DNA of 64,000 bases from Hypnocyclicus thermotrophus (GTDB lineage Bacteria > Fusobacteriota > Fusobacteriia > Fusobacteriales > Fusobacteriaceae): the NCBI RefSeq assembly GCF_004365575.1, contig NZ_SOBG01000003.1:196997-260996 (forward strand), written 5' to 3'. How positions within the stretch are numbered: the first letter of the stretch is position 1; each line of letters starts with the position of its first letter. The notes beneath the pieces are model-generated. The model did not search any database. It saw only the letters and a list, made by a program, of their open reading frames with translations, and was not told the DNA's origin. Positions 6,944 through 26,996 of the stretch are shown here, one piece after another. The translations under genes and the position numbers were made by a program.

Positions 6944-8818
6944 TTATTTGCTATCAAATTGTGTAAACCACACAATTCCCGATAACACAAAACATACACA
7001 TGGAAGAGCCACACCATTGCCCCACATCTTATACTCTGCAGAATCTGAATGCGGTTTCTGTAACCATTTTCTAATTTGGTTATCCGTCTTTGGTTTTGTA
7101 TTCTTACCGATTGCTTTTGCATGAACTTTGAAGATTTCCTTCCACAGAATAATTTCATCCTGAGTTGGATTTTTTGTTTCAAGGTTACTGCACCACCATT
7201 TTGGAAATCCCTGTAAACTTGCACATTCGATTGGTGTCAGCCTTCGGACAATATAATCAAGTCCATCAACATCATTAATAAGTGGAGGATCTTTATAATC
7301 TGTAGCTACCAAAGTGTTTGCCAGTTCTTCTTTTGCAGAAGTGAAAAACGATGCCTTACTTGCACTGTAAGTAGGATGAGCAACAGCACCTGGTCCTTTT
7401 GCAACCATAGTCGGTTCAACCTCTTCATCTACTGCAAAACTATACTTTGCATTTTCCCCTTGATTAAATGCGGCACGATCAATCCCATAAGCAACTGCAT
7501 GATGATCTGCTGTATTAAGGGTAAATGAAACCTCCTCACCGATGCCATCACCTTGTGGTCCATTCTTGTCCTTTCTGCCAATCATAGATCCTTGCAGTGC
7601 ATAGCTTTCCACCACAGCCATACCACCTTGATTACAGGATGGGTTACTACCATTAGCATCAATAGTTCTTGATGTATCTGCCTCATAAATCCCACTGTTT
7701 GGATTATCTGATTTCATAGAATTACTGTCCTTGGAACAAATACCGTATACCTTTGGCACAAACAAAGTTTGATCATTATTACAACCAAGGGTGGCTGAAA
7801 TATCATCTTGTATCAATGCACCTTTCCCGCCACCCTCACAACCACATCGGATTTTCAGTGTCTTAGGTGTTTCTACTACAAAAGGTTGATTATTACCACC
7901 AGTACCAAAAGTTGAAAGGATGGTCTGTGATACATCAAGCGGCCCCTTATATCGGGAATCCTGTGAATGATTTTCAAATACAAGTGGGGGATGATGGCTT
8001 TCTGCACGAAGGGTACAGGTCACATCTTTCGTTAGATCCATTCTTTTTCCACCTTGGTCATTTAAGCAGACAGTGCTTGTTTTTTTAATGCCCTTGATAG
8101 CATCGGAGGTAGTTCTTTGCCACGAGCGGAAGCTCTCCGCAGAATACCCAGACAAGCCTTCTGACTTAAATAATATTTCTCCGGCACCCCTACCTGCAAA
8201 ATCTGCGACAAGGAAGATACGTTTTCTTCGTTGGGGAACTCCCCAGTATTGAGCATCAAGCACCCTCCATGCAACAGAGAATCTACTACAAGTTCCCTCA
8301 TCTGCCATGATTTCTCCTGCAGCTGACCATTTCTTAGGTTTAGGCACTGTAATACCGGCATCTTTGATTTTACAGATTTCTTCGAGGACTGCCCTAAAGT
8401 CTTCTCCTTTGTTTGAGGAGAATGCTCCAGGTACATTTTCCCATACGATATATCTTGGATATTTGCCATTGGTTGCACACCTCATTTCTTTTATAATTCT
8501 TATTGCCTCATAAAAAAGGCTTGAGCGATTACCATTTAAGCCTTTTCGCTTACCTGCAACGGACATATCTTGGCAGGGTGAGCCAAATGTAATAATATCC
8601 ACTGGTTCTATTTTGGCACCATCTAGTTTTGAAACATCACCGTAATGTTTTATAAAGGGTAGCCTTTTTGTTGTTACTCTAATAGGAAACGGCTCAATTT
8701 CCGATGCCCACACAGGGGTTATACCAGATATCAAGCCGCCTAATGGAAAGCCACCCGAACCGTCAAAAAGACTACCAAGAGTAAGTCCACTCATTGACTG
8801 AGGTTTATTTTGTTTCAT
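6944..8818 (-). CDS. DNA (cytosine-5)-methyltransferase with a very large variable region (phage-borne, orphan)
   Basis: Motif I FDGSGG, motif IV GSPCQ, motif VI ENV and motif VIII QRRKR are present. The C-terminus carries RRLTPIECASLQGFP. A variable region of ~330 aa lies between motifs VIII and IX. Confidence 0.9.
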   Translation of the reverse strand: MKQNKPQSMSGLTLGSLFDGSGGFPLGGLISGITPVWASEIEPFPIRVTTKRLPFIKHYGDVSKLDGAKIEPVDIITFGSPCQDMSVAGKRKGLNGNRSSLFYEAIRIIKEMRCATNGKYPRYIVWENVPGAFSSNKGEDFRAVLEEICKIKDAGITVPKPKKWSAAGEIMADEGTCSRFSVAWRVLDAQYWGVPQRRKRIFLVADFAGRGAGEILFKSEGLSGYSAESFRSWQRTTSDAIKGIKKTSTVCLNDQGGKRMDLTKDVTCTLRAESHHPPLVFENHSQDSRYKGPLDVSQTILSTFGTGGNNQPFVVETPKTLKIRCGCEGGGKGALIQDDISATLGCNNDQTLFVPKVYGICSKDSNSMKSDNPNSGIYEADTSRTIDANGSNPSCNQGGMAVVESYALQGSMIGRKDKNGPQGDGIGEEVSFTLNTADHHAVAYGIDRAAFNQGENAKYSFAVDEEVEPTMVAKGPGAVAHPTYSASKASFFTSAKEELANTLVATDYKDPPLINDVDGLDYIVRRLTPIECASLQGFPKWWCSNLETKNPTQDEIILWKEIFKVHAKAIGKNTKPKTDNQIRKWLQKPHSDSAEYKMWGNGVALPCVCFVLSGIVWFTQFDSK

Positions 8819-10055
8819 CGCTTACCTCCACTTCTTTGTAGGAGTAGGTAAGACCGTCTCTTTGCACTTTTACATTATCGAAAGAACCGACCTGTTCAAT
8901 ATATCTTTTTACAATAACATCGCAGTATTTTTCATCAAGTTCTACAGTATAGCAGATACGGTTAGCCTGCTCACAGGCAATTAGTGTACTTCCTGAACCT
9001 CCAAATGGGTCTAGTACAATACAGTTACTCATACTGGAATTCATAATCGGATAAGCAAGCAGAGGAATAGGTTTCATGGTAGGATGATCAGCACTTTTCC
9101 TTGGTTTATCAAATTCCCAGATAGTGGATTCTTTTCTCCCCGTGTACCACTGATGTTTTCCTTTTTTCTTCCATCCAAACAGTACTGGTTCATGCTGCCA
9201 TTGATAAGGAGAACGTCCAAGCACTAAGCTTTGCTTTTTCCAAATACAAGTACCAGATAAATAAAATCCGGCATTAGCAAATGCTTTGCGGAAATTTAGC
9301 CCCTCTGTATCTGCATGAAACACATAAATGCTTGCATCTTCTGCCATGACCTTTTCCATATTAGTAAAAGCATCAAAAAGGAATTGATAAAATGTATCCT
9401 TTTCCATGTTGTCATTTTTAATCTTACCTGCACTACCTTCGTAATTTACATTGTACGGAGGGTCTGTTATAACCAAATTTGCTTTTTTCTTACCCATAAG
9501 CAAATCATAAGTTTTTGCTTTGGTAGAATCACCGCAAACTAAACGGTGCTTTCCTAAAAACCACACATCTCCTGTTTTTGACATAGTTGGTTTCTTAAGC
9601 TCTTCATCGACATCAAAGTCATCATCATGGATACCATCTTTTAGCGTATCTTTAAAAAGGTCATCCAATTCTTCGGGTTCAAACCCAGTAAGCGATACAT
9701 CAAAATCTGTACCCTGCAAATCAGAAATTAATATGGCAAGTTTATCTTTATCCCAATCACCGCTTATTTTATTAAGAGCTATGTTAAGAGCCTTTTCTTT
9801 TTCATCTGACATTTCAATAACAACACACTCAACCTCTGTAATTCCCATATCAATGAGCACCTTTAATCTTTGATGTCCACCAACAACACGTCCTGTAGCC
9901 TTATTCCAGATAACAGGCTCAACATAACCAAATTGTTCAATGGAACGTTTCAGCTTTTCATATTCAGCATCCCCTGGTTTTAAATCCTTACGAGGATTAT
10001 AATCAGCGGGAAGTAAATCTACTGTATTCTTTTTTTCAATATTCATTACCCACAC
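8805..10055 (-). CDS. ParB-like nuclease domain fused to N6-adenine/N4-cytosine DNA methyltransferase (beta class)
   Basis: The N-terminus has a ParB/Srx-like fold pattern (VGGHQRL). A DPPY motif precedes a DPFGGSGST AdoMet motif, which is the beta-class order. It overlaps the downstream C5-methyltransferase by 14 nt. Confidence 0.85.
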   Translation of the reverse strand: MWVMNIEKKNTVDLLPADYNPRKDLKPGDAEYEKLKRSIEQFGYVEPVIWNKATGRVVGGHQRLKVLIDMGITEVECVVIEMSDEKEKALNIALNKISGDWDKDKLAILISDLQGTDFDVSLTGFEPEELDDLFKDTLKDGIHDDDFDVDEELKKPTMSKTGDVWFLGKHRLVCGDSTKAKTYDLLMGKKKANLVITDPPYNVNYEGSAGKIKNDNMEKDTFYQFLFDAFTNMEKVMAEDASIYVFHADTEGLNFRKAFANAGFYLSGTCIWKKQSLVLGRSPYQWQHEPVLFGWKKKGKHQWYTGRKESTIWEFDKPRKSADHPTMKPIPLLAYPIMNSSMSNCIVLDPFGGSGSTLIACEQANRICYTVELDEKYCDVIVKRYIEQVGSFDNVKVQRDGLTYSYKEVEVSDETK

Positions 10056-18549: not shown

Positions 18550-20433
18550 TTATACTGCAATATTATGGTCATGTAAAAAGTCAAATATTGATTCCATAGA
18601 TTGCTTTGATAGGTGAGTCAATGCAAAATCATACCATATATGTTCTTGTTTACAAAAGTTTAAAGTGCAAGGCGATTTATCAATAATATGCTTACTGATG
18701 TTGGGTGGTAAATGTAATCCTAGACAAATTAATACCAACGTATTTATAGAAGGATCACGTTTACCATTCGCAATTCTGCTAATTGTCTGGTCATCAACCA
18801 TAATTTTCTTTTCTAACTCCTTATACGTAATTCCACGCCATTTTAACACAACTTTCAATGATTCACAAAAATCATTTGGCAAAGACTTATATACTCTCAT
18901 TTCATCCATAACAACATCTTCTACTAATTTGATTTGTTTATCATGGTCAGCATATGCATAACCATCACCATATACGATATTAAAACTTACTGTTGAATCC
19001 TTATCCTTATTGAGAAAACATACACTATGATAATCCTTTTTAGTTCCAGACTTGACTGTCATGTCAAAAACAAGACAGCATTCTTCCATATGATTACGAG
19101 CGTAATCAGTTAATATAGTAAATTCATTATCATCTTGGGTTAAATATTTAGGATGATTAAATACGAAATGTGCATCAACATATTGATAACTACCATCCCC
19201 AACAAGTCTAGATAATTTTTGATTTGTTATGCTCTGTATAGCTGCCTCTTCTGCACTAATAGAAAAAGTCTGATGTTCTTTTAATATGCCCTTTTTAAAA
19301 CGATGTGTAGCAACATATCTTCCATCAATATATGTAAATGTGCCTATTGCTTCCTCAAATCCAGCATCTACCATTCGAATTTTTGCTGCAGTACGAGATA
19401 CACAGAAAAAGGTTGATAATGCATCTATAACAGGTTCAATAACATCAATAATATCAAACTTCCCAGTTGATTCTCGAAATTGTTTAATAAATTTCCATGC
19501 CTGAGTTTTGAACATACCCATTGGCATTTGGATTCTCGGAGCAAGTGCATTTGCCTGCCATTCCATCCATTCTGTCGCGTCTCTACTATTGCCAGCAACA
19601 CCACCAATAGCTTGGCACTTAATTCTACTAGCTTCACTATTGTACAAACGCTCAAGTTCAAAAGCCTTTCGATGTTTATCCCAATGAACACACTCATGGA
19701 TGATGGTATTATTAACTTTACCTAGGTTATACAAAAAATAAGTTTCAGGGTCAACAAATATGGTTTTTTCATTTACATCTACTGACACTAATTCATCTGA
19801 GTCTTTATCATAAAACTCAGATGTACTATTATGAAAAAATATTTGGCCAAAAACAGAGCAATCCTTTGTGATATTCCTTACTTCAATATTCAAGCCCATT
19901 CCCTTAGCAAGTTCCATTGGATCAACTGGCATGGGTTGTAACAATGCTTTAGGATAATAATCCTTTAAAAACTGTGTTGCTATCTCTTCTAGCTGATTTT
20001 TATAAATAATTGGCACAAGAGCATCTGACATAGGTTTGGGTTGTTTATTTTTGTTGGTATACTCAGCTACACTTAAAATTGCAAAGTCATTTAAATTACA
20101 CTCCAGATTTCCAGAACATTTCAGCGTAAACCACTGACTACAATATTCCGATTCATCATAATGATAATCTGCCTCACGAACTTCCAGTTCAACCCCAACA
20201 ACGACATCAAATTCTATTTCCATATCTGGTAAATCACTAACAGATACAAACTTTACTTCTATATCTGATAATTCTATACCACCTATCTTTCTAACTCTAT
20301 ATAGCTGTAAATCCAAATTATTATAATTATCCGTGGCATAACTCTGTATAGCAGCATACATTTCATTTTCGAACCTATCTGCCACATAATCCCTAAAAGA
20401 ACGATTACCCGCCATTACAACAACCCCCTCCAA
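18550..20433 (-). CDS. ImmA/IrrE-family HEXXH metallopeptidase domain protein with C-terminal XRE-type HTH (627 aa)
   Basis: The peptidase motif IIHECVHWDKH is preceded by an ImmA-like N-lobe (PVDPMELAKGMGLNIEV...IFVDP). The C-terminal HTH reads ITYKELEKKIMVDDQTISRIANGKRDPSINTLVLIC. The gene is divergent from the plus-strand operon. Confidence 0.7.
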   Translation of the reverse strand: MEGVVVMAGNRSFRDYVADRFENEMYAAIQSYATDNYNNLDLQLYRVRKIGGIELSDIEVKFVSVSDLPDMEIEFDVVVGVELEVREADYHYDESEYCSQWFTLKCSGNLECNLNDFAILSVAEYTNKNKQPKPMSDALVPIIYKNQLEEIATQFLKDYYPKALLQPMPVDPMELAKGMGLNIEVRNITKDCSVFGQIFFHNSTSEFYDKDSDELVSVDVNEKTIFVDPETYFLYNLGKVNNTIIHECVHWDKHRKAFELERLYNSEASRIKCQAIGGVAGNSRDATEWMEWQANALAPRIQMPMGMFKTQAWKFIKQFRESTGKFDIIDVIEPVIDALSTFFCVSRTAAKIRMVDAGFEEAIGTFTYIDGRYVATHRFKKGILKEHQTFSISAEEAAIQSITNQKLSRLVGDGSYQYVDAHFVFNHPKYLTQDDNEFTILTDYARNHMEECCLVFDMTVKSGTKKDYHSVCFLNKDKDSTVSFNIVYGDGYAYADHDKQIKLVEDVVMDEMRVYKSLPNDFCESLKVVLKWRGITYKELEKKIMVDDQTISRIANGKRDPSINTLVLICLGLHLPPNISKHIIDKSPCTLNFCKQEHIWYDFALTHLSKQSMESIFDFLHDHNIAV

Positions 20434-20682: not shown

Positions 20683-20898
20683 ATGCCTATAAGTTACAAA
20701 AAATTATGGAAATTACTTATTGACAAAGATATGAAAAAAAAAGACTTACAGATTGCTGCTGGAATAAGCTCTTCTTCCATCACGAAAATGGCAAAAAATC
20801 AGAATGTAAACACTGAAACGTTAACTAAAGTTTGCAAAGCACTTGACTGTGATATTTCTGATATAGTTGAGATTGTAAATGACAAACCTCCTAACTAA
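20683..20898 (+). CDS. XRE-family HTH transcriptional regulator (71 aa)
   Basis: An HTH_3/HTH_26-like sequence (KKKDLQIAAGISSSSITKMAKNQNVNTETLTKVCKALDCDISDIV). A GAGGTGG RBS precedes the start. Confidence 0.7.
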   Translation: MPISYKKLWKLLIDKDMKKKDLQIAAGISSSSITKMAKNQNVNTETLTKVCKALDCDISDIVEIVNDKPPN

Positions 20899-21167
20899 TC
20901 TTATCTAAGTTTTTTATTTTACTTAATAGCATATTACTTTCAACTAATTATATATCTTTCACAATGATGTAAAGTTTAAAAAGTTGTTACACTATTTAAA
21001 TTATTGAAAGTAAGTTTGCAAACTGATTATATTTTATAAAGATTGTCAATTCCAATTAGCACAAGATGATACTGTAAATATATTGCTTAAATCATACAAG
21101 CCATCAGATTGTAATCAAAAAAAATATATTATAACAATGATAAAAATCAGGAGGTAAAACCGATACA

Positions 21168-21635
21168 ATGACACCAATAATGAGTTTTTGGCCAAGCATT
21201 TATGAAAAGATTTTAAACCAAATTAAATTAATTGAATACCGTAGGACTTTTCCAAAAGACTGCAAATTCGCTTATATGTATGTTAGTAAACCGGTAAAAG
21301 CAGTTTGTGGAATTTTATATTTTGGTGAAAAACATACGCTTTCAGATTGGAAAGAAAAATATTCTAATAGTTTTGAGATTTCTACTAGAATTGATGAGTA
21401 TCTCAAGAATTACAGATATGGCATGGAAATTAAGGGTTTTCAAAAGGTTTATCCCATAACTTTAGATGACTTGCGAAAAAATGTCCCTGGATTTGTTGCC
21501 CCTCAATCATATTTACTACTAGAAAATAATAAAAATCTTGCAGAATACTTAGAAAGAAATCTTGTTCTTGTTGGTGAAAAAATTGAAAATGACTTTTCAA
21601 ATGCCTATCCAGAGCATGTTTGTAAGAGGTATTAA
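21168..21635 (+). CDS. ASCH-domain (PUA-like) protein
   Basis: The ASCH signature K-x2-E-x-R is present in NQIKLIEYRR (K20, E23, R25), followed by a YMYVSKPVKAVCGILYFGE beta-barrel-like block. An AGGAGG RBS precedes the start. The stop lies 3 nt before the methyltransferase start. Confidence 0.55.
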   Translation: MTPIMSFWPSIYEKILNQIKLIEYRRTFPKDCKFAYMYVSKPVKAVCGILYFGEKHTLSDWKEKYSNSFEISTRIDEYLKNYRYGMEIKGFQKVYPITLDDLRKNVPGFVAPQSYLLLENNKNLAEYLERNLVLVGEKIENDFSNAYPEHVCKRY

Positions 21636-21638
21636 ATA

Positions 21639-22724
21639 ATGTTAAAAGTATTTGAAGCGTTTGCTGGATATGGAAGTCAACGTCTAGCCCTAAAAAATGC
21701 AAACATACCTCATGAGATTGTTGGTATATCAGAAATCGATGGTGATGTAATTCGTTCATATGCTGCAATCCATGAAAATTTATTGGAAGAAAGAAAAAAG
21801 GAATTATTGATTTCAGATGAGCAAATGCTTAATTTTCTAGAAAAAATCAATGTTCCACTCGATTATAAGACTTTTAAAAACAAAGCAAAGAATTTAAAGG
21901 GTCAAAAGTTAAAAGACATGTATCTTGCTAATAAACTTAGTAAAAATTTTGGGGATATTCGTACAATTAACCCCGATAAATTACCGGACTTTGATTTTTT
22001 TACATACTCATTTCCTTGCCAAGATATTTCTATTGCTGGTTATCAAAATGGATTAGATGCAGACTCAGGGACTCGCTCTTCACTTCTTTGGGAATGCTGC
22101 AAAATTATTGAAAAAAAGAGGCCGAAATATTTAATGATGGAAAACGTAAAAAACCTAATCGGTAAAAATCACATAAAAAACTTTGAAGAATTCTTACTCT
22201 ATTTAAAAAGATTAGGATATAAAAACTATTGGGATGTATTAAACGCTCGTGATTATGGAATTCCTCAAAATAGAGAAAGAGTATTTTGTATCAGTATTCT
22301 TGATAGCCATGAAGAATTCACGTTTCCACCAATCAGAGAACTATCTATTTTTATGAACGATCTATTAGAAGATGATGTCCCCATTAATTTTTATTTAAAA
22401 AATAATCAAGTAAGTGATGAACCTATTAGTCAAGATTATATTTATTGCCTAGATTCAAATTATTGGAAAGGTACATTTTTAAAAGATTTTCGTACTAAAA
22501 AAAGACGACAATTAGTATCAGGACCCGTTCGGGATGATGGAAAATATCCAGCAAGGCGACTAACCCCTAGAGAAACTTGGCGATTTATGGGAGTTAATGA
22601 TGCCGATTTTGATAAGGCTAGTAAATTAGTAAGTAACACAAGTCTATACAGACAAGCTGGAAATAGCATTGTAGTTCCAGTCTTAGAAGCAATATATAAA
22701 AAATTATTTTTACATAAGGAGTGA
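21639..22724 (+). CDS. DNA (cytosine-5)-methyltransferase
   Basis: Motif I FEAFAGYGSQ, motif IV SFPCQD, motif VI ENVKNL and motif VIII GIPQNRERVF are present. An ~80-aa insertion lies between motifs I and IV. Confidence 0.9.
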   Translation: MLKVFEAFAGYGSQRLALKNANIPHEIVGISEIDGDVIRSYAAIHENLLEERKKELLISDEQMLNFLEKINVPLDYKTFKNKAKNLKGQKLKDMYLANKLSKNFGDIRTINPDKLPDFDFFTYSFPCQDISIAGYQNGLDADSGTRSSLLWECCKIIEKKRPKYLMMENVKNLIGKNHIKNFEEFLLYLKRLGYKNYWDVLNARDYGIPQNRERVFCISILDSHEEFTFPPIRELSIFMNDLLEDDVPINFYLKNNQVSDEPISQDYIYCLDSNYWKGTFLKDFRTKKRRQLVSGPVRDDGKYPARRLTPRETWRFMGVNDADFDKASKLVSNTSLYRQAGNSIVVPVLEAIYKKLFLHKE

Positions 22725-22730
22725 AAAAAT

Positions 22731-23540
22731 ATGACTAACAAAGAACGAATCATTCAATTATTTTATGCTAATGTAAAAGGAAGACGCCCAGACACAACAG
22801 GCTCAAACATTCATCATGATGGTAGAGAAGGTCATTGGTTAGAACGCCAATTCGGAATAAGTGCCAACGCATCAAACGAAGCTGATTTATTTGGATATGA
22901 ATTAAAAAATGAAACCACAAGTAAGACTACTTTTGGTGATTGGTCTGCAAACAGATATATTTTTAAAACTGGTGAATATGTGCATTGTTTTGATGGCAAC
23001 ACTGCCTCTGATCGCCAAGATAGTTTTTGTAGGATATTTGGTAAACCAAACCCACTTAAAGGTGGTAGATACTCTTGGTCTGGGAGCCCATGCCCAACTA
23101 TTCATGGTTATAATAATTTTGGACAGGTACTTATAATAGATAATAATAAAGACATTATTGCCATATATTCTTATAGCCAAGATAAGCGTATAAACAAATC
23201 ACAAGTCGTTCCCGTTGAATTACGACAAGACAATTTAGAAATAGCTAGATGGTTTGGAGAATATTCGCCAACTTCTAAACGAACCGACAAATGTCTTCAG
23301 GCCAAATTGGAAGATAAATTTAATCATGAGGGTTGGTTTACTTGTAAAAAAGGTCTAGATGGAACATATCAAAAAATTTGTTTCGGAGAGCCTATAACCT
23401 ATGATAATTGGTTGAACTTAGTCAAAAAAGGTATTGTGTTTTTTGATAGCGGAATGTACCAAGGAAATAAAAGACCATATTCACAATGGAGAGCTAATAA
23501 TTCATTTTGGGATAGTTTAATTATAGAATGTTATGAATAA
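22731..23540 (+). CDS. MutH/Sau3AI-family PD-(D/E)XK endonuclease, single domain (269 aa)
   Basis: EGHWLERQFGISANASNEADLFGYELK aligns with the MutH block [26 protein letters not shown]. The catalytic D52, E57 and K59 are retained. Confidence 0.6.
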   Translation: MTNKERIIQLFYANVKGRRPDTTGSNIHHDGREGHWLERQFGISANASNEADLFGYELKNETTSKTTFGDWSANRYIFKTGEYVHCFDGNTASDRQDSFCRIFGKPNPLKGGRYSWSGSPCPTIHGYNNFGQVLIIDNNKDIIAIYSYSQDKRINKSQVVPVELRQDNLEIARWFGEYSPTSKRTDKCLQAKLEDKFNHEGWFTCKKGLDGTYQKICFGEPITYDNWLNLVKKGIVFFDSGMYQGNKRPYSQWRANNSFWDSLIIECYE

Positions 23541-23554
23541 CAAGGAGGTATATC

Positions 23555-25105
23555 ATGTTTAAGCTAACTAATGAAATTAAAATAGTCATTAACCATATAC
23601 CTTTACCATGGATTCCAAAAATTGAATTATATTATCCTGATTTGCCACAATTCCCCATTATTTATATCAATACATATGTTAATAAACAGCGAATTCTTGC
23701 TTGCCCAGTTGCTGTAAGTTACCAAATAGAAGAGAATTCTTGCAATGCCATATTCACTGTTTTAACTAATGTAGAATCAAATGAACTCACTAATGAAAAA
23801 ATTAAATTAGAGCTATCTGAGCGTATTGGATATTCAGAAAAAATATCAAAATCAGATGTTATTGAATGTTGCAATGGGAACGAACAATATATAGCTTTAT
23901 TCACAGATCTTTGGGAGTACATTCAATTTTCATATGGGGAATTTGTTCCCTATGGTAAGTTCTACGAGGAGATTTTTTCAATTATTCGCTTTGTCGCTGC
24001 ATGGCAACCTAAAACCGGAAGACAAAGTGAAATGCGTATGCTATATAATTTCATGAGTGCTTTTGGTGAAAAAGTTGTAATGCCAAAAAAATGGAGTCAT
24101 CTAGAGTTTTATGCTATTCCTAACTTATACGATGTATCAAATAGTTGTTTTCTTCAATTTCCAAAATTTTCAACACTTAAGTCTGCAATGAACAAATTAT
24201 TTGATGAATATTTTATTAAAAATATTAATATTAATGGCATAGAATTTAAAGTGATGGAGCATGCGTGGAAGCAAAACAAAGATAGCTTTATATCAAATGT
24301 AACCGATCCTATGTTTTCTAGAGGGATATTATCTGAAGAAGAAAAACTTTATGCTGAAACGTTAGTTGATGCTTTTAATCGTCATGCATGGAGAGCAGCA
24401 TATTTCATAAGTGCTTTTATGAATATTAAAAATAACTACAGTATGTGGACAAAAAAATTTTTTATGGATTTTTATAAGAATGGAAATAAATTAAAAGGAT
24501 ATTCTGAAAAAGTAATTGCTTGTTTTTTACAACAAGGATTTCTTAATCCTGAAGTAATACCAATTGATACTTGGGTAAAAACTTTCTATGAATTTCCATT
24601 AGGGATTAATACTAACACCCAGTTTTTCAATGAATTTTCAAACCTAGGAAAATTAGAACGAATTATTTGGCTTTCCAGTCAATCAAACAAGACCAATATG
24701 AAAACTTTCTTTGATATTCTTTGGTGTCAGCGGTATGGAACAATTGGAAATGGAGAACTAAGAGGTATTAATCCTATTGCTTGTTACAGTTGCCAACTTA
24801 AAAATAGCTGTGTTGGTGTAGCAAAAAAAAGATTTACTAATGTTAAGCTATTAAACAACTCTTCAAATTCTGAAGAAAATTTATCTGCAATTTTTGAATA
24901 TAACCCTGAAATAACTTATATTTGTATTTTATATAACGGTGTTCCAAAGAAATGCTATGTTAGAAAAAAAGGCATAGCAACTCTGATAGACGAATTTAGC
25001 GGATATATATTAACAGCGCAAAACAAACTATCTGATGATTTATTACATAAAGGTACTATAACTTTTGAAGAATTTATTTTTTCCAAAAATAAAAACCATG
25101 AATAA
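23555..25105 (+). CDS. 516-aa protein with Endonuclease-III-like HhH-GPD glycosylase signature and Cys cluster
   Basis: GYSEK(319)VIACFLQQGFLNPEVIPID(338)TW parallels the Nth block GVGRK(120)TANVVL...VD(138)THV. Cysteines 391, 410, 413 and 419 give C-x18-C-x2-C-x5-C, and the Asp-to-first-Cys spacing is like Nth. Large N- and C-terminal extensions are unassigned. Confidence 0.5.
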   Translation: MFKLTNEIKIVINHIPLPWIPKIELYYPDLPQFPIIYINTYVNKQRILACPVAVSYQIEENSCNAIFTVLTNVESNELTNEKIKLELSERIGYSEKISKSDVIECCNGNEQYIALFTDLWEYIQFSYGEFVPYGKFYEEIFSIIRFVAAWQPKTGRQSEMRMLYNFMSAFGEKVVMPKKWSHLEFYAIPNLYDVSNSCFLQFPKFSTLKSAMNKLFDEYFIKNININGIEFKVMEHAWKQNKDSFISNVTDPMFSRGILSEEEKLYAETLVDAFNRHAWRAAYFISAFMNIKNNYSMWTKKFFMDFYKNGNKLKGYSEKVIACFLQQGFLNPEVIPIDTWVKTFYEFPLGINTNTQFFNEFSNLGKLERIIWLSSQSNKTNMKTFFDILWCQRYGTIGNGELRGINPIACYSCQLKNSCVGVAKKRFTNVKLLNNSSNSEENLSAIFEYNPEITYICILYNGVPKKCYVRKKGIATLIDEFSGYILTAQNKLSDDLLHKGTITFEEFIFSKNKNHE

Positions 25106-25155: not shown

Positions 25156-26340
25156 TTATAAAATCCTATATTGACCTAAATAATCAAGCATGCTTTTAGC
25201 AACTGCATCAATAACGTTAATACATACTGAATTACCAAACTGCTTATAAGCTTGAGAATTTGAAACAGCAATAATAAATTCTTCAGGAAAGCCTTGTAAT
25301 CTAGCACATTCTCGTGGGGTTAACATTCTAGGATTCTTCCCATTTTGCTCAATTAATGCTTCGCTTCCATCCTTATAATATCTTGCACTAATGGTGCTCG
25401 TATACTTGCTGTTTGAATTAAACAAACAAAAACCAAATCCATTTCCTTTCTTTTTATGTGCTTTCTTTCTTTCTAAGTGACCTTGATACAATTTGTCTGA
25501 TATTGTAAATCTATCAGGTACTTCCTTTTCTAAAATCATTCCTACATTAACACTGTCATCCACGTAACCCTTTGGATATTTAAACTTCACAAAATCAGCC
25601 GGTAGGTAATCTTTATTGAATCCAACAATAATAATACGTTCTCTATTTTGAGGTACCCCAAAGTGGTAAGCGTTCAATACTTCCGGTTCAGGTACGTAAT
25701 AATTTAGTTCATTGAGAATCGAAAGAATTACTTTCAAAGTTCTTCCTTTATCATGGCCACGTAATTGTTTCACATTTTCAAGCATAAATGCTTTTGGTCG
25801 TTTTTCCCTTAAAATTTTAGCAATATTAAAGAATAATGTACCACGCGCATCTTCAAATCCTTTTTTTAACCCCGCTTGAGAAAATGGTTGGCACGGAAAT
25901 CCTGCCAACAAAATATCATGATCTGGAATATCTTTTTCGTCAATTTGCGTAATATCTCCTGCGGGCATTTCACCATAATTTATCCTATAAGTTTTTTGAG
26001 CAAATTTATCCCATTCTGATGAAAATACTGTTCGACCGCCATGGCGCTGAAAACCTAGTCTAATACCACCAATTCCGGCAAACAAATCTATCTGAGTAAA
26101 TCTACTATTTTCTATGCTTGGTGCAACAAAAGGAGGCTCTGTGGGAAAGGCTAATATTTTCTTATAAACCTCATCTGGAACTTCCTTCTTGTCAGTTTCC
26201 CAAAACTTTAATTCTTTTTCTTCTTCTTTGCTTAAACCAAGAGCATCTGAAAATTCCTTACGAGTAACATCTATTTTTTTTCTAATATTTGTTATAATTT
26301 GACCTTTTGTCAATTCAATACTCACGCTAGTGTTAGTCAT
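25156..26340 (-). CDS. DNA (cytosine-5)-methyltransferase with N-terminal HTH extension
   Basis: Motif I DLFAGIGG, motif IV GFPCQPFS, motif VI ENVKQL and motif VIII GVPQNRERIII are present. The first ~90 aa are HTH-like, as in autoregulatory C5-methyltransferases. Confidence 0.9.
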   Translation of the reverse strand: MTNTSVSIELTKGQIITNIRKKIDVTRKEFSDALGLSKEEEKELKFWETDKKEVPDEVYKKILAFPTEPPFVAPSIENSRFTQIDLFAGIGGIRLGFQRHGGRTVFSSEWDKFAQKTYRINYGEMPAGDITQIDEKDIPDHDILLAGFPCQPFSQAGLKKGFEDARGTLFFNIAKILREKRPKAFMLENVKQLRGHDKGRTLKVILSILNELNYYVPEPEVLNAYHFGVPQNRERIIIVGFNKDYLPADFVKFKYPKGYVDDSVNVGMILEKEVPDRFTISDKLYQGHLERKKAHKKKGNGFGFCLFNSNSKYTSTISARYYKDGSEALIEQNGKNPRMLTPRECARLQGFPEEFIIAVSNSQAYKQFGNSVCINVIDAVAKSMLDYLGQYRIL

Positions 26341-26573
26341 TATTTTATTTCTTCTCCTTCTCCTTTTTTACAATCATCTATGTATAACAATTCTGCTACC
26401 TCACAATCAAAGAGCGAACATAATTTTTCAATGGTTTTATAATTAATCCTAGTAGCCTTATCATTATACAGATTAGAAACTGTCGTTCTAGAAAGTTTAG
26501 TTCTCTCGTGTACTTCTTGTATTGAAAATCTATGTTCTCCCATCAAAGTTGATAACCTGCAATGAAGTTTCAT
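26340..26573 (-). CDS. small XRE-type HTH protein (controller-like)
   Basis: The HTH reads FSIQEVHERTKLSRTTVSNLYNDKATRINYKTIEKLCSLFDC. The probable start is an internal ATG with an AGGAGGAG RBS; the ORF track gives 26340..26678. The stop overlaps the methyltransferase start. Confidence 0.6.
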   Translation of the reverse strand: MKLHCRLSTLMGEHRFSIQEVHERTKLSRTTVSNLYNDKATRINYKTIEKLCSLFDCEVAELLYIDDCKKGEGEEIK

Positions 26574-26996
26574 AATCTCCTCCTTGATAACCAAAATCAT
26601 ATTCATTTTAACATTAATGTTGGTTAAATTCAAGGATATATCATGATAATTAATTATCCCCAAAAAGACTATAATCAAAATTTTTACATGGTAAAAGTCA
26701 GTAAATAAATAACATCTGAAATTTATAACTCGAAAAAGCTATTTATTTATCAGCATTTTTACTCTTAATCATTCAATCAATACAAGCAGTATATCAAAGT
26801 TAATTATATTTTGATTTAAATACATCTATCCTGTCTTCTCAACCTACCCAAAAGCAATCCTGTCCACTCAACTATGCCACTTTTTCACAGTGGATATATT
26901 CCCACAAAGCACTCATTTAACAAGGGGTTATGCCATTCTGCAAATCAGCAAAATACACAGAACCCTTTATTTCCTACACTTTCAAGCTTTCTATTT

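Follow-up and report, generated by a model that had tools for sequence, protein, structure and literature searches.

The closest described counterpart of the small ASCH (PUA-like) protein encoded at positions 21168-21635 of a 64,000-nucleotide (nt) stretch of the Hypnocyclicus thermotrophus genome (contig NZ_SOBG01000003.1; the whole stretch is called here the window) is ZmASCH of Zymomonas mobilis, a Mg-dependent ribonuclease of single-stranded RNA (ssRNA) in which Tyr47, Lys53 and Ser128 matter functionally (PMC5615036). Further relatives are the GKER/GKTR amidohydrolases TthASCH, EOLA1, TRIP4 and YqfB; the Lys/Glu dyad of the 'GKER' octapeptide is essential for the deacetylation of N4-acetylcytidine (ac4C) by the first three of them (bioRxiv 10.64898/2026.02.27.708502). 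BapA, a ZmASCH-like barrel, belongs to a defence operon, where it trims glucosyl-5-hydroxymethylcytosine (glucosyl-5hmC) in DNA for the 5hmC glycosylase Brig3 (bioRxiv 10.64898/2026.02.25.707755). The PADLOC candidate system PDC-M11 includes an ASCH protein, with or without a helix-turn-helix (HTH) fusion, as partner of (PIN-)GNAT-EVE operons (Bell et al. 2020, PMC7641849), and stand-alone EVE and ASCH proteins occur near type I restriction-modification (R-M) systems, mostly archaeal, or, for ASCH, fused or linked to N6-adenine (N6A) methyltransferases (PMC7641849; Iyer 2016, PMC4738411).

In the window the ASCH gene opens an R-M operon, and we find that the subfamily to which its product belongs is a conserved accessory of cytosine-methylating type II R-M modules, whatever the nuclease attached. 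Type II R-M systems are textbook two-gene units, to which a controller or a vsr gene is sometimes added. In the literature, whose coverage was incomplete, we came upon no paper on an ASCH subfamily that is linked to cytosine-methylating cassettes of type II, and nothing relevant on ScrFI orfX or PDC-M11.

The ASCH gene and its protein

The features of the gene are as follows.

21150-21154 (+): GGAGG Shine-Dalgarno sequence of the ASCH gene, seen in the sequence 13 nt before the ATG
21168-21635 (+): stand-alone ASCH (PUA-like) gene, 155 amino acids (aa), ZmASCH-like family 2, from the open reading frame (ORF), the ZmASCH match and the AlphaFold2 (AF2) model
21225-21242 (+): KLIEYR, i.e. K20-x2-E23-x-R25 (residues 20-25), core of the 'GKER'-type ASCH octapeptide, seen in the sequence; all 38 aligned homologues keep K20, E23 and R25
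21624-21629 (+): AAGAGG ribosome-binding site of the following methyltransferase (MTase) gene, M1, within the 3' end of the ASCH gene and 9 nt before the M1 ATG

Read from the sequence, the ORF runs from the ATG at 21168 to the TAA at 21633-21635, and the three nucleotides 'ata' separate it from the ATG (21639) of M1, a C5-MTase of 361 aa; the length, the motif and the 3-nt gap are thus those given by an earlier note made from the sequence alone. In 13 of the 16 cassettes sharing the gene order of the window (the window counted), the gap between the ASCH stop and the MTase start is -1 to +4 nt. The ASCH gene is probably translationally coupled to M1 and promoter-proximal in the operon. Upstream of it, the sole part conserved in relatives is GGAGG or GGGGG at equal distance, with ATGAC; no conserved operator, leader or inverted repeat was found there, and a promoter and terminator scan gave results no better than those of shuffled sequence.

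That the ORF is a real gene is indicated by its homologues, of which 153 reach E<=1e-3, with identities of 46-94% and almost always the same length (151-160 aa), and by 20 positions invariant in an alignment of 38 homologues, K20, E23 and R25 among them. Of 1.84 billion cluster representatives searched, 1297 match at E<=1e-3, among them 240 that reach E<=1e-10 and 28 that reach E<=1e-30. An exact-sequence look-up of the window protein itself returned no record. In the RefSeq record of a Vagococcus plasmid the relative is labelled 'hypothetical protein'.

When the protein was compared by phmmer with the sequences of the Protein Data Bank (PDB), only ZmASCH (5GUS, 5GUQ) was found, at E=1.7e-7; the 38-sequence family profile reached it at E=6.1e-14, and as this was the sole match of the profile search of the PDB at E<=10, no residue-level alignment to TthASCH or YqfB is possible. 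The AF2 model (pLDDT 96.3, pTM 0.89) has six strands forming a beta-barrel, with five flanking helices, in agreement with the barrel-like block that had been noticed in the sequence. Foldseek places ZmASCH at the top of the PDB (E 4e-10, TM 0.65-0.71), followed by the ASCH domain of TRIP4, complexes with double-stranded DNA included, then by TTHA0113, EOLA1 and YqfB. The window protein and ZmASCH are thus nearest by sequence and by fold, they are of similar size, both six-stranded barrels with helices, and have the K-x2-E-x-R motif in common; on the other hand their identity is about 23%, and an extra acidic C-terminal tail is present only in the window protein (residues 121-155, pI 5.65, the core being basic with a pI of 9.1). 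The ASCH/PUA-like identity proposed earlier is therefore upheld by the ZmASCH match, the AF2 model and the fold search, and we consider it very likely that the product of ORF 21168-21635 is a true ASCH/PUA-like protein that stands alone, folds as a beta-barrel, carries a 'GKER'-type motif and belongs to the ZmASCH-like family, its gene being the first of a prophage-borne R-M cassette.

The GxKxxExR octapeptide of the ASCH superfamily (Iyer et al. 2006) is found in this protein, and K20, E23 and R25 match the catalytic Lys/Glu motif of the ASCH N4-acylcytidine amidohydrolases. The residues Tyr47, Lys53 and Ser128 of ZmASCH align to identical ones in the window protein, Y38, K44 and S114: Y38 is invariant in the family, K44 nearly so, and S114 is replaced by Met in part of it. 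Four aromatic residues of the pocket (W61, Y65, F69 and Y78) correspond in the alignment to those of helices alpha2 and alpha3 of ZmASCH. With the GKER/GKTR amidohydrolases (TthASCH being 2DP9) the protein shares the superfamily fold (2dp9, 5y7d, 8yew, 9kyf) and the Lys/Glu/Arg motif, but the similarity is much weaker (E 2e-3 to 1e-1), and these proteins are housekeeping or eukaryotic, none of them being reported as linked to R-M.

The window protein matches the PADLOC model PDC-M11B at 5e-11, which is weak beside the 1.4e-31 and 2.5e-39 of other relatives. Like our protein, PDC-M11B is a small accessory encoded in a mobile operon linked to defence, and an HTH-ASCH protein of Rhizobium is 33% identical to ours; PDC-M11A, for its part, matches a Rhizobium PIN-GNAT protein at 3.6e-120. 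However, the window protein carries no HTH fusion and its partners are cytosine MTases and restriction endonucleases (REases), and membership of PDC-M11 was rejected, no GNAT, PIN or EVE match being found among the neighbours in the window. The operon of BapA resembles that of the window in pairing a barrel protein with a DNA glycosylase (a glycosylase-like protein is encoded in the window), but BapA is described as having two barrels and a catalytic Asp101, and its partner is a modification-dependent glycosylase rather than a classical R-M system. The ASCH and EVE proteins linked to type I systems and N6A-MTases are, like ours, PUA-like accessories of DNA modification, but of type I and adenine, not of type II and cytosine.

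Vsr, in the dcm-vsr arrangement, is likewise a small accessory that travels with C5-MTase genes and handles a side-effect of cytosine methylation; its fold is unrelated. The ASCH protein as a substitute of Vsr was rejected, as it has no PF03852 match and vsr coexists with ASCH in two of the loci described below (L110 and L024; loci are cited by our own numbers). A role as R-M controller (C) protein was also rejected: the protein has a beta-barrel fold and no HTH match, and separate HTH genes are present. It cannot be counted either as a reader-nuclease of type IV, as it is a single domain of 155 aa with no nuclease domain; Foldseek detects only a weak resemblance to the readers VcaM4I and PD-T4-3 (E 0.016-0.07).

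Linkage to restriction-modification genes

The census of gene neighbourhoods comprises 94 loci with ASCH relatives at least 46% identical, obtained from genome, metagenome and exact-protein look-ups; ORFs were called, neighbours clustered and the cluster representatives annotated. It rests on metagenome, viral, plasmid and phage collections because a scan of genome contigs with the single protein gave 3 loci. A type II R-M module adjoins the ASCH gene in 87 of the 94 loci, and the remaining 7 end at contig edges. The homologues are therefore linked to MTase or nuclease genes as the window gene is, and the modules fall into the following classes.

Class A, LlaMI type, 19 loci and the window: ASCH, C5-MTase, LlaMI REase and, optionally, a 516-aa protein in one direction, facing a C5-MTase
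Class B, HaeIII type, 44 loci forming one 80%-identity cluster: 678-aa C5-MTase::HaeIII-REase fusion, then ASCH, downstream genes variable
Class C, SinI type, 8 loci: C5-MTase, then ASCH, beside a SinI-family REase
Class D, MvaI/BcnI type, 5 loci: ASCH, then MvaI/BcnI REase, facing an N6_N4-family MTase
Class E, Streptococcus salivarius type, 9 loci: ASCH, HTH C-protein and two unknown proteins, facing a 700-aa N6_N4 MTase
Class F, 1 locus: ASCH, then a 285-aa unknown protein, facing a C5-MTase

Class A also covers fusions of MTase and REase and a shuffled order in which M1, the second MTase M2 and ASCH face the REase and the 516-aa protein. After dereplication at 80% identity, 21 ASCH clusters remain (A 13, C 3, E 2, B 1, D 1, F 1), so that the arrangement, regarded earlier as unusual, in fact recurs, and with several kinds of R-M.

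Particular loci illustrate this variety. On the Vagococcus plasmid a dcm gene on the opposite strand precedes ASCH, C5-MTase and LlaMI REase; on a Clostridium plasmid the ASCH gene adjoins dcm; in a Terrisporobacter phage ASCH is followed by a 63-aa ORF and two C5-MTases, with an HhH-GPD gene near; and on IMG/VR contigs ASCH precedes or follows the MTase, in systems of the SinI type and of the type of locus L018. In locus L132 (986-5768) the order is HTH_26, ASCH, C5-MTase, McrB-like AAA_5 and McrC, i.e. the ASCH-MTase pair is joined to a GTPase-type nuclease, a cassette which we take to resemble the LlaJI type.

In most modules ASCH lies directly beside the MTase gene and in the same direction, the adjacent MTase being usually of the C5 type, and the distance to the co-directional neighbour is mostly -20 to +13 nt. 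The gene order varies (ASCH before the MTase, after it, or after M1 and M2) while the adjacency to the MTase holds. ASCH proteins of different R-M classes can exceed 65% mutual identity, which suggests that the ASCH gene moves between R-M systems as a module. It can also be missing: among the orthologues of M1, ASCH is adjacent in 8 of 9, the cassette L121 being without it, and plasmids of Psychrobacter and Acinetobacter carry plain pairs of a LlaMI REase and an M2-type enzyme, there the only MTase, with neither ASCH nor M1 nor the 516-aa gene. The existence of these pairs and of L121 indicates that ASCH is a conserved but dispensable accessory.

The earlier note had also suggested a specificity role. 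This is unlikely, since closely related ASCH proteins accompany LlaMI-, HaeIII-, SinI-, MvaI/BcnI- and McrBC-type systems of differing predicted specificity, and since ASCH is absent from LlaMI-MTase pairs that look functional and from L121 with its M1. As a determinant of sequence specificity the ASCH protein was rejected: one subfamily serves at least seven kinds of R-M.

Some of these loci deserve mention on their own account. Single-chain M1::LlaMI fusions of about 636 aa occur in L013 (6472-8382), L014 (949-2862) and L019 (1722-3632), and M::HaeIII fusions of 678 aa (PF00145 and PF09556) in L091 (3939-5975) and about 40 similar gut loci; in both cases the ASCH gene is directly adjacent. 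In the S. salivarius type (L005-L007, 6645-12089 in S. salivarius; L027-L031; L034), ASCH and the HTH C-protein are followed by paralogous proteins of 391 and 563 aa, which have no family match and face the 700-aa N6_N4 methyltransferase, with AbiH adjoining. This cassette is probably an undescribed R-M system.

The cassette of the window and its surroundings

The other genes of the cassette are the following.

20683-20898 (+): HTH_26 (Cro/C1-type) gene, 71 aa, 270 nt upstream of ASCH (PF13443 3.1e-19)
21639-22724 (+): M1, C5-cytosine DNA methyltransferase, 361 aa (PF00145 3.1e-78; PADLOC MTase_II PDLC03388 1.2e-205)
22731-23540 (+): LlaMI-family type II REase, 269 aa, MvaI/BcnI-related (PF09562 1.8e-74; PF15515 6.1e-8; PADLOC REase_II 1.3e-120)
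23555-25105 (+): predicted HhH-GPD (OGG1/EndoIII-like) glycosylase, 516 aa, last gene of the operon (AF2, Foldseek)
25156-26340 (-): M2, second C5-cytosine methyltransferase, 394 aa, Dcm-like, convergent with the operon (PF00145 2.4e-106)
26340-26678 (-): HTH_26 gene abutting M2 on its upstream side (PF13443 6.3e-17, residues 41-100)

ASCH, M1, the REase and the 516-aa gene follow one another with gaps of 3, 6 and 14 nt, so that ASCH is indeed the first gene of a methyltransferase-nuclease operon, as had been claimed. With one PF09562 gene and two PF00145 genes, the cassette has the genes of a type II R-M system of the LlaMI type; LlaMI, the namesake of PF09562, is a CC^NGG enzyme. The HTH_26 gene at 20683-20898 is a candidate controller of the ASCH-M-R operon: a homologous HTH gene lies upstream of ASCH in L001, L002 and L016, as HTH_26 does in L132. 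At its N-terminus M2 is longer by about 80 aa, and the orthologue of M2 in L008 is annotated HTH_3 and DNA_methylase; MTases of the M.SsoII type autoregulate through such an extension. The HTH_26 gene upstream of M2 is conserved in L001, L002, L019 and L022, and its true start is probably internal to the ORF given here.

The 516-aa protein has no Pfam match and no PDB sequence match, and its 293 homologues carry no precomputed Pfam domain. It is 100% identical to the Hypnocyclicus thermotrophus protein EV215_0937. Its AF2 model (pLDDT 91) finds as top Foldseek matches the OGG1-type HhH-GPD glycosylases (E 8e-6, probability 1.0). Invariant in its family are Lys319 in GYSEK and Asp338 in IPIDTW, which by eye are placed like the catalytic Lys and Asp of EndoIII, and four Cys (C391, C410, C413 and C419) which could hold an iron-sulphur cluster. 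On the basis of this modelling we predict that it is a divergent HhH-GPD DNA glycosylase; it may act on mismatches or lesions, or be a restriction glycosylase. Besides the window, 11 of the 19 related loci of the LlaMI type carry its gene.

Other companions were found near ASCH genes. Vsr is the classical answer to the deamination of 5-methylcytosine (5mC), HhH-GPD proteins belong to base excision and NUDIX proteins to nucleotide sanitation. A vsr gene (PF03852) is present in ASCH-bearing LlaMI-type cassettes of two contigs, L110 (7740-8099, -, 4.5e-30; the same contig as L119) and L024 (3462-3827, -, 9.6e-28). The L110 variant has vsr and lacks the 516-aa glycosylase-like gene, a hint that the two might be functional alternatives. 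AlkA-like HhH-GPD genes (PF00730) lie near ASCH-C5-MTase pairs in the phage and prophage contigs L097 (9305-9949, -), L111 (9845-10492, -) and L112 (4073-4717, +), and a Bacillus plasmid (L114, 8217-8903, -) has one too, in a LlaMI cassette that lacks ASCH. NUDIX genes are located 6-21 nt upstream of ASCH in L013 (5657-5986), L014 (134-463) and L024 (5516-5980), and near it in L047/L048 (about 8870-9340); they may be partners of the ASCH cassettes in the sanitation of the nucleotide pool.

The cassette is located at the junction of a prophage with the host genes. Positions 1-20433 hold the prophage (capsid, portal-ClpP fusion, large terminase, SNF2 helicase, VapE primase-helicase, Rha), and the host genes from 26.9 kb on include rlmD-, ftsL- and rsmH-like ORFs. 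The GC content drops in steps: it is about 0.38 in the prophage, about 0.30 in the cassette and about 0.24 in the host genes. With the prophage at 1-20.4 kb, this marks the R-M cassette as prophage cargo; near-identical cassettes were found in IMG/VR viral contigs. The prophage encodes two more methyltransferases, at 6944-8818 a C5 enzyme of 624 aa and at 8805-10055 a ParB-N6_N4 enzyme. The gene at 18550-20433 (-), which is divergent from the HTH/ASCH operon, encodes 627 aa with a C-terminal HTH_3 and a weak match to the PADLOC metallopeptidase CapP (2.3e-6); it is kept beside the cassette in L002 (62% identity), and its product may be a regulator of the prophage repressor or anti-repressor type.

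What the ASCH protein may do

For substrate, chemistry and biological role we propose the following, beside the fold, conserved residues, basic core, operon position, gene linkage and dispensability described above. Along its basic cleft the ASCH protein would bind nucleic acid that is single-stranded or has been opened locally, and a cytosine-type base, or possibly a free nucleoside, would enter the aromatic pocket beside Lys20, Glu23 and Arg25. It would then act as a reader or hydrolase of aberrant or modified cytosine, serving the methyltransferase side of the system, and would neither set the sequence specificity nor cut DNA; in this way it would keep the side-effects of cytosine methylation in check, as part of an accessory layer to which the Vsr, HhH-GPD and NUDIX proteins would also belong. 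By analogy with its relatives, such a cytosine-directed reader or hydrolase dealing with methylation side-effects is a serious possibility, which we hesitate to call probable. A modification-sensing role is plausible. As for the explanation taken as a whole, i.e. an R-M accessory ASCH protein acting by this mechanism, it is the one we favour, tentatively, and it comes near to being probable.

A bolder extension is that ZmASCH-like, Vsr, HhH-GPD and NUDIX proteins together form a previously unrecognised layer of 'methylation side-effect control' in cytosine-methylating R-M. ASCH would then be the enzyme or reader of a cytosine derivative which C5-MTases generate or which is relevant to them. 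Such a derivative might be an N3 or N4 adduct made off target, a site methylated on one strand, or a modified nucleoside released by DNA turnover, and ASCH could partner the OGG1/EndoIII-like glycosylase of the operon as BapA does Brig3. We regard this extension as unlikely, if attractive.

Several observations weigh against the favoured explanation or its foundations. Neither Pfam, PF04266 included, nor NCBIfam gave any match to the ASCH ORF at E<=1, and the profile check on which the ASCH call might have relied is thus negative; but the fold search, the ZmASCH match and the Rhizobium relative 33% identical, which passes PF04266 with 24 bits for a cutoff of 21.2, indicate a limit in the sensitivity of the model. 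In most of the family Gln or Asn takes the place of the Gly of GxKxxExR, which some members keep. The census describes relatives at least 40% identical, mainly from Firmicutes mobile elements and gut metagenomes, counted with kinship ignored. Classes D and E pair ASCH with MTases of the N6_N4 family instead of C5. A distant relative (P0185, profile E 1e-20) stands in an unrelated context of SAM-MTase and TauD, so that the R-M link is a property of the present ASCH subfamily rather than of the ZmASCH-like proteins at large; three relatives at middle distance were traced to contigs too short or truncated for their context to be seen. In the flanks retrieved, Vsr, glycosylase and NUDIX genes are all absent from most loci, and the co-occurrence of these companions is for this reason a suggestive theme rather than a rule. 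Lastly, we know of no cytosine lesion that is both made by C5-MTases and reversible by an ASCH-type hydrolase.

Other functions can be considered. The ASCH protein, whose gene comes first and is translationally coupled, might be a post-transcriptional regulator that binds and cleaves ssRNA. Acting on the mRNA of the operon, it would adjust when, or in what ratio, M and R are made as the prophage cassette enters a new host, as a functional analogue of the C-proteins without an HTH. This would be in line with the ribonuclease activity of ZmASCH on ssRNA and the identity of its three functional residues in the window protein, with the promoter-proximal position of ASCH in the window type, the MvaI/BcnI and S. 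salivarius types, L018/L111 and L132, with the fusion of alphaproteobacterial ASCH relatives to an XRE HTH, and with the name 'predicted transcriptional regulator' given by JGI to two homologues. But ASCH comes last or after the MTase in HaeIII, SinI and rearranged LlaMI cassettes, and dedicated HTHs already coexist with it: two HTH genes in the window, the C-protein right after ASCH in the S. salivarius type, the extension of the M2 orthologue. Moreover the upstream region yielded no conserved operator or leader, S114 is Met in part of the family, and the RNase activity of ZmASCH is reported as weak (PMC5615036). Such a regulator appears rather unlikely to us. The possibility that the protein is a mere passenger, i.e. 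a general deacetylase of ac4C in tRNA or nucleosides riding on mobile elements with no tie to R-M, finds some ground in the removal of ac4C from tRNA by 19 of the 19 ASCH proteins tested by Statkeviciute et al., and in the non-R-M context of P0185. Hitch-hiking is nevertheless hard to accept as the adjacency, the co-orientation and the near-zero gaps persist over seven R-M kinds and shuffled orders, and we judge it very improbable.

ASCH could also be an offensive eraser, stripping from invader DNA a protective cytosine group, e.g. an N4-acyl written by a phage GNAT, and so letting the REase cut. All the linked REase families that could be identified take their names from enzymes with C/G-rich sites (LlaMI, HaeIII, SinI, MvaI and BcnI), which would suit such a function; we know, however, of no N4-acylated cytosine in phage DNA. 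The ac4C amidohydrolase activity of GKER-type ASCH proteins, the BapA-Brig3 precedent of trimming glucosyl-5hmC, the nearest defence-database family, PDC-M11B, being an ASCH partner of (PIN-)GNAT-EVE proteins, and the suggestion that phage GNAT-EVE proteins counter host R-M (Bell et al., PMC7641849) argue in the same direction. But the adjacency of ASCH is kept to the methyltransferase more than to the nuclease, and nothing in the cassette points to the targeting of foreign DNA; an eraser is unlikely. Alternatively the protein, like the SRA domain of UHRF1, might bind hemimethylated sites after replication and either recruit the MTase or shield the sites from endonucleases able to nick the unmethylated strand. 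Enzymes of the MvaI/BcnI type work as monomers and nick each strand in turn. Methylated bases are read by other PUA-like folds (SRA, EVE, YTH), the four pocket aromatics (W61 to Y78) line up with those of ZmASCH, and the ASCH gene adjoins MTase genes. Yet we know of no ASCH protein that binds 5mC, a pure reader leaves the conserved, catalytic-type Lys and Glu without explanation, and a single subfamily would need to recognise C5 marks as well as those of the N6_N4 family, presumably N4, in differing sequence contexts. This makes a hemimethylation reader improbable.

A third component, of ASCH fold, is conserved over LlaMI-, HaeIII-, SinI-, MvaI/BcnI- and McrBC-type cassettes and is accompanied in the window by a predicted, divergent HhH-GPD glycosylase that sequence models miss. 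At about 6 kb the cassette is small and can be cloned, so that deletion phenotypes and in vitro assays would be straightforward. If the ASCH protein does read or edit a cytosine derivative, it would offer a testable parallel to the helper-plus-glycosylase logic of BapA and Brig3, and a bacterial genetic system for the ASCH domains, of which the human TRIP4 and EOLA1 are only now gaining activities. It would also show that cytosine methylation comes at a cost which mobile R-M systems must meet.

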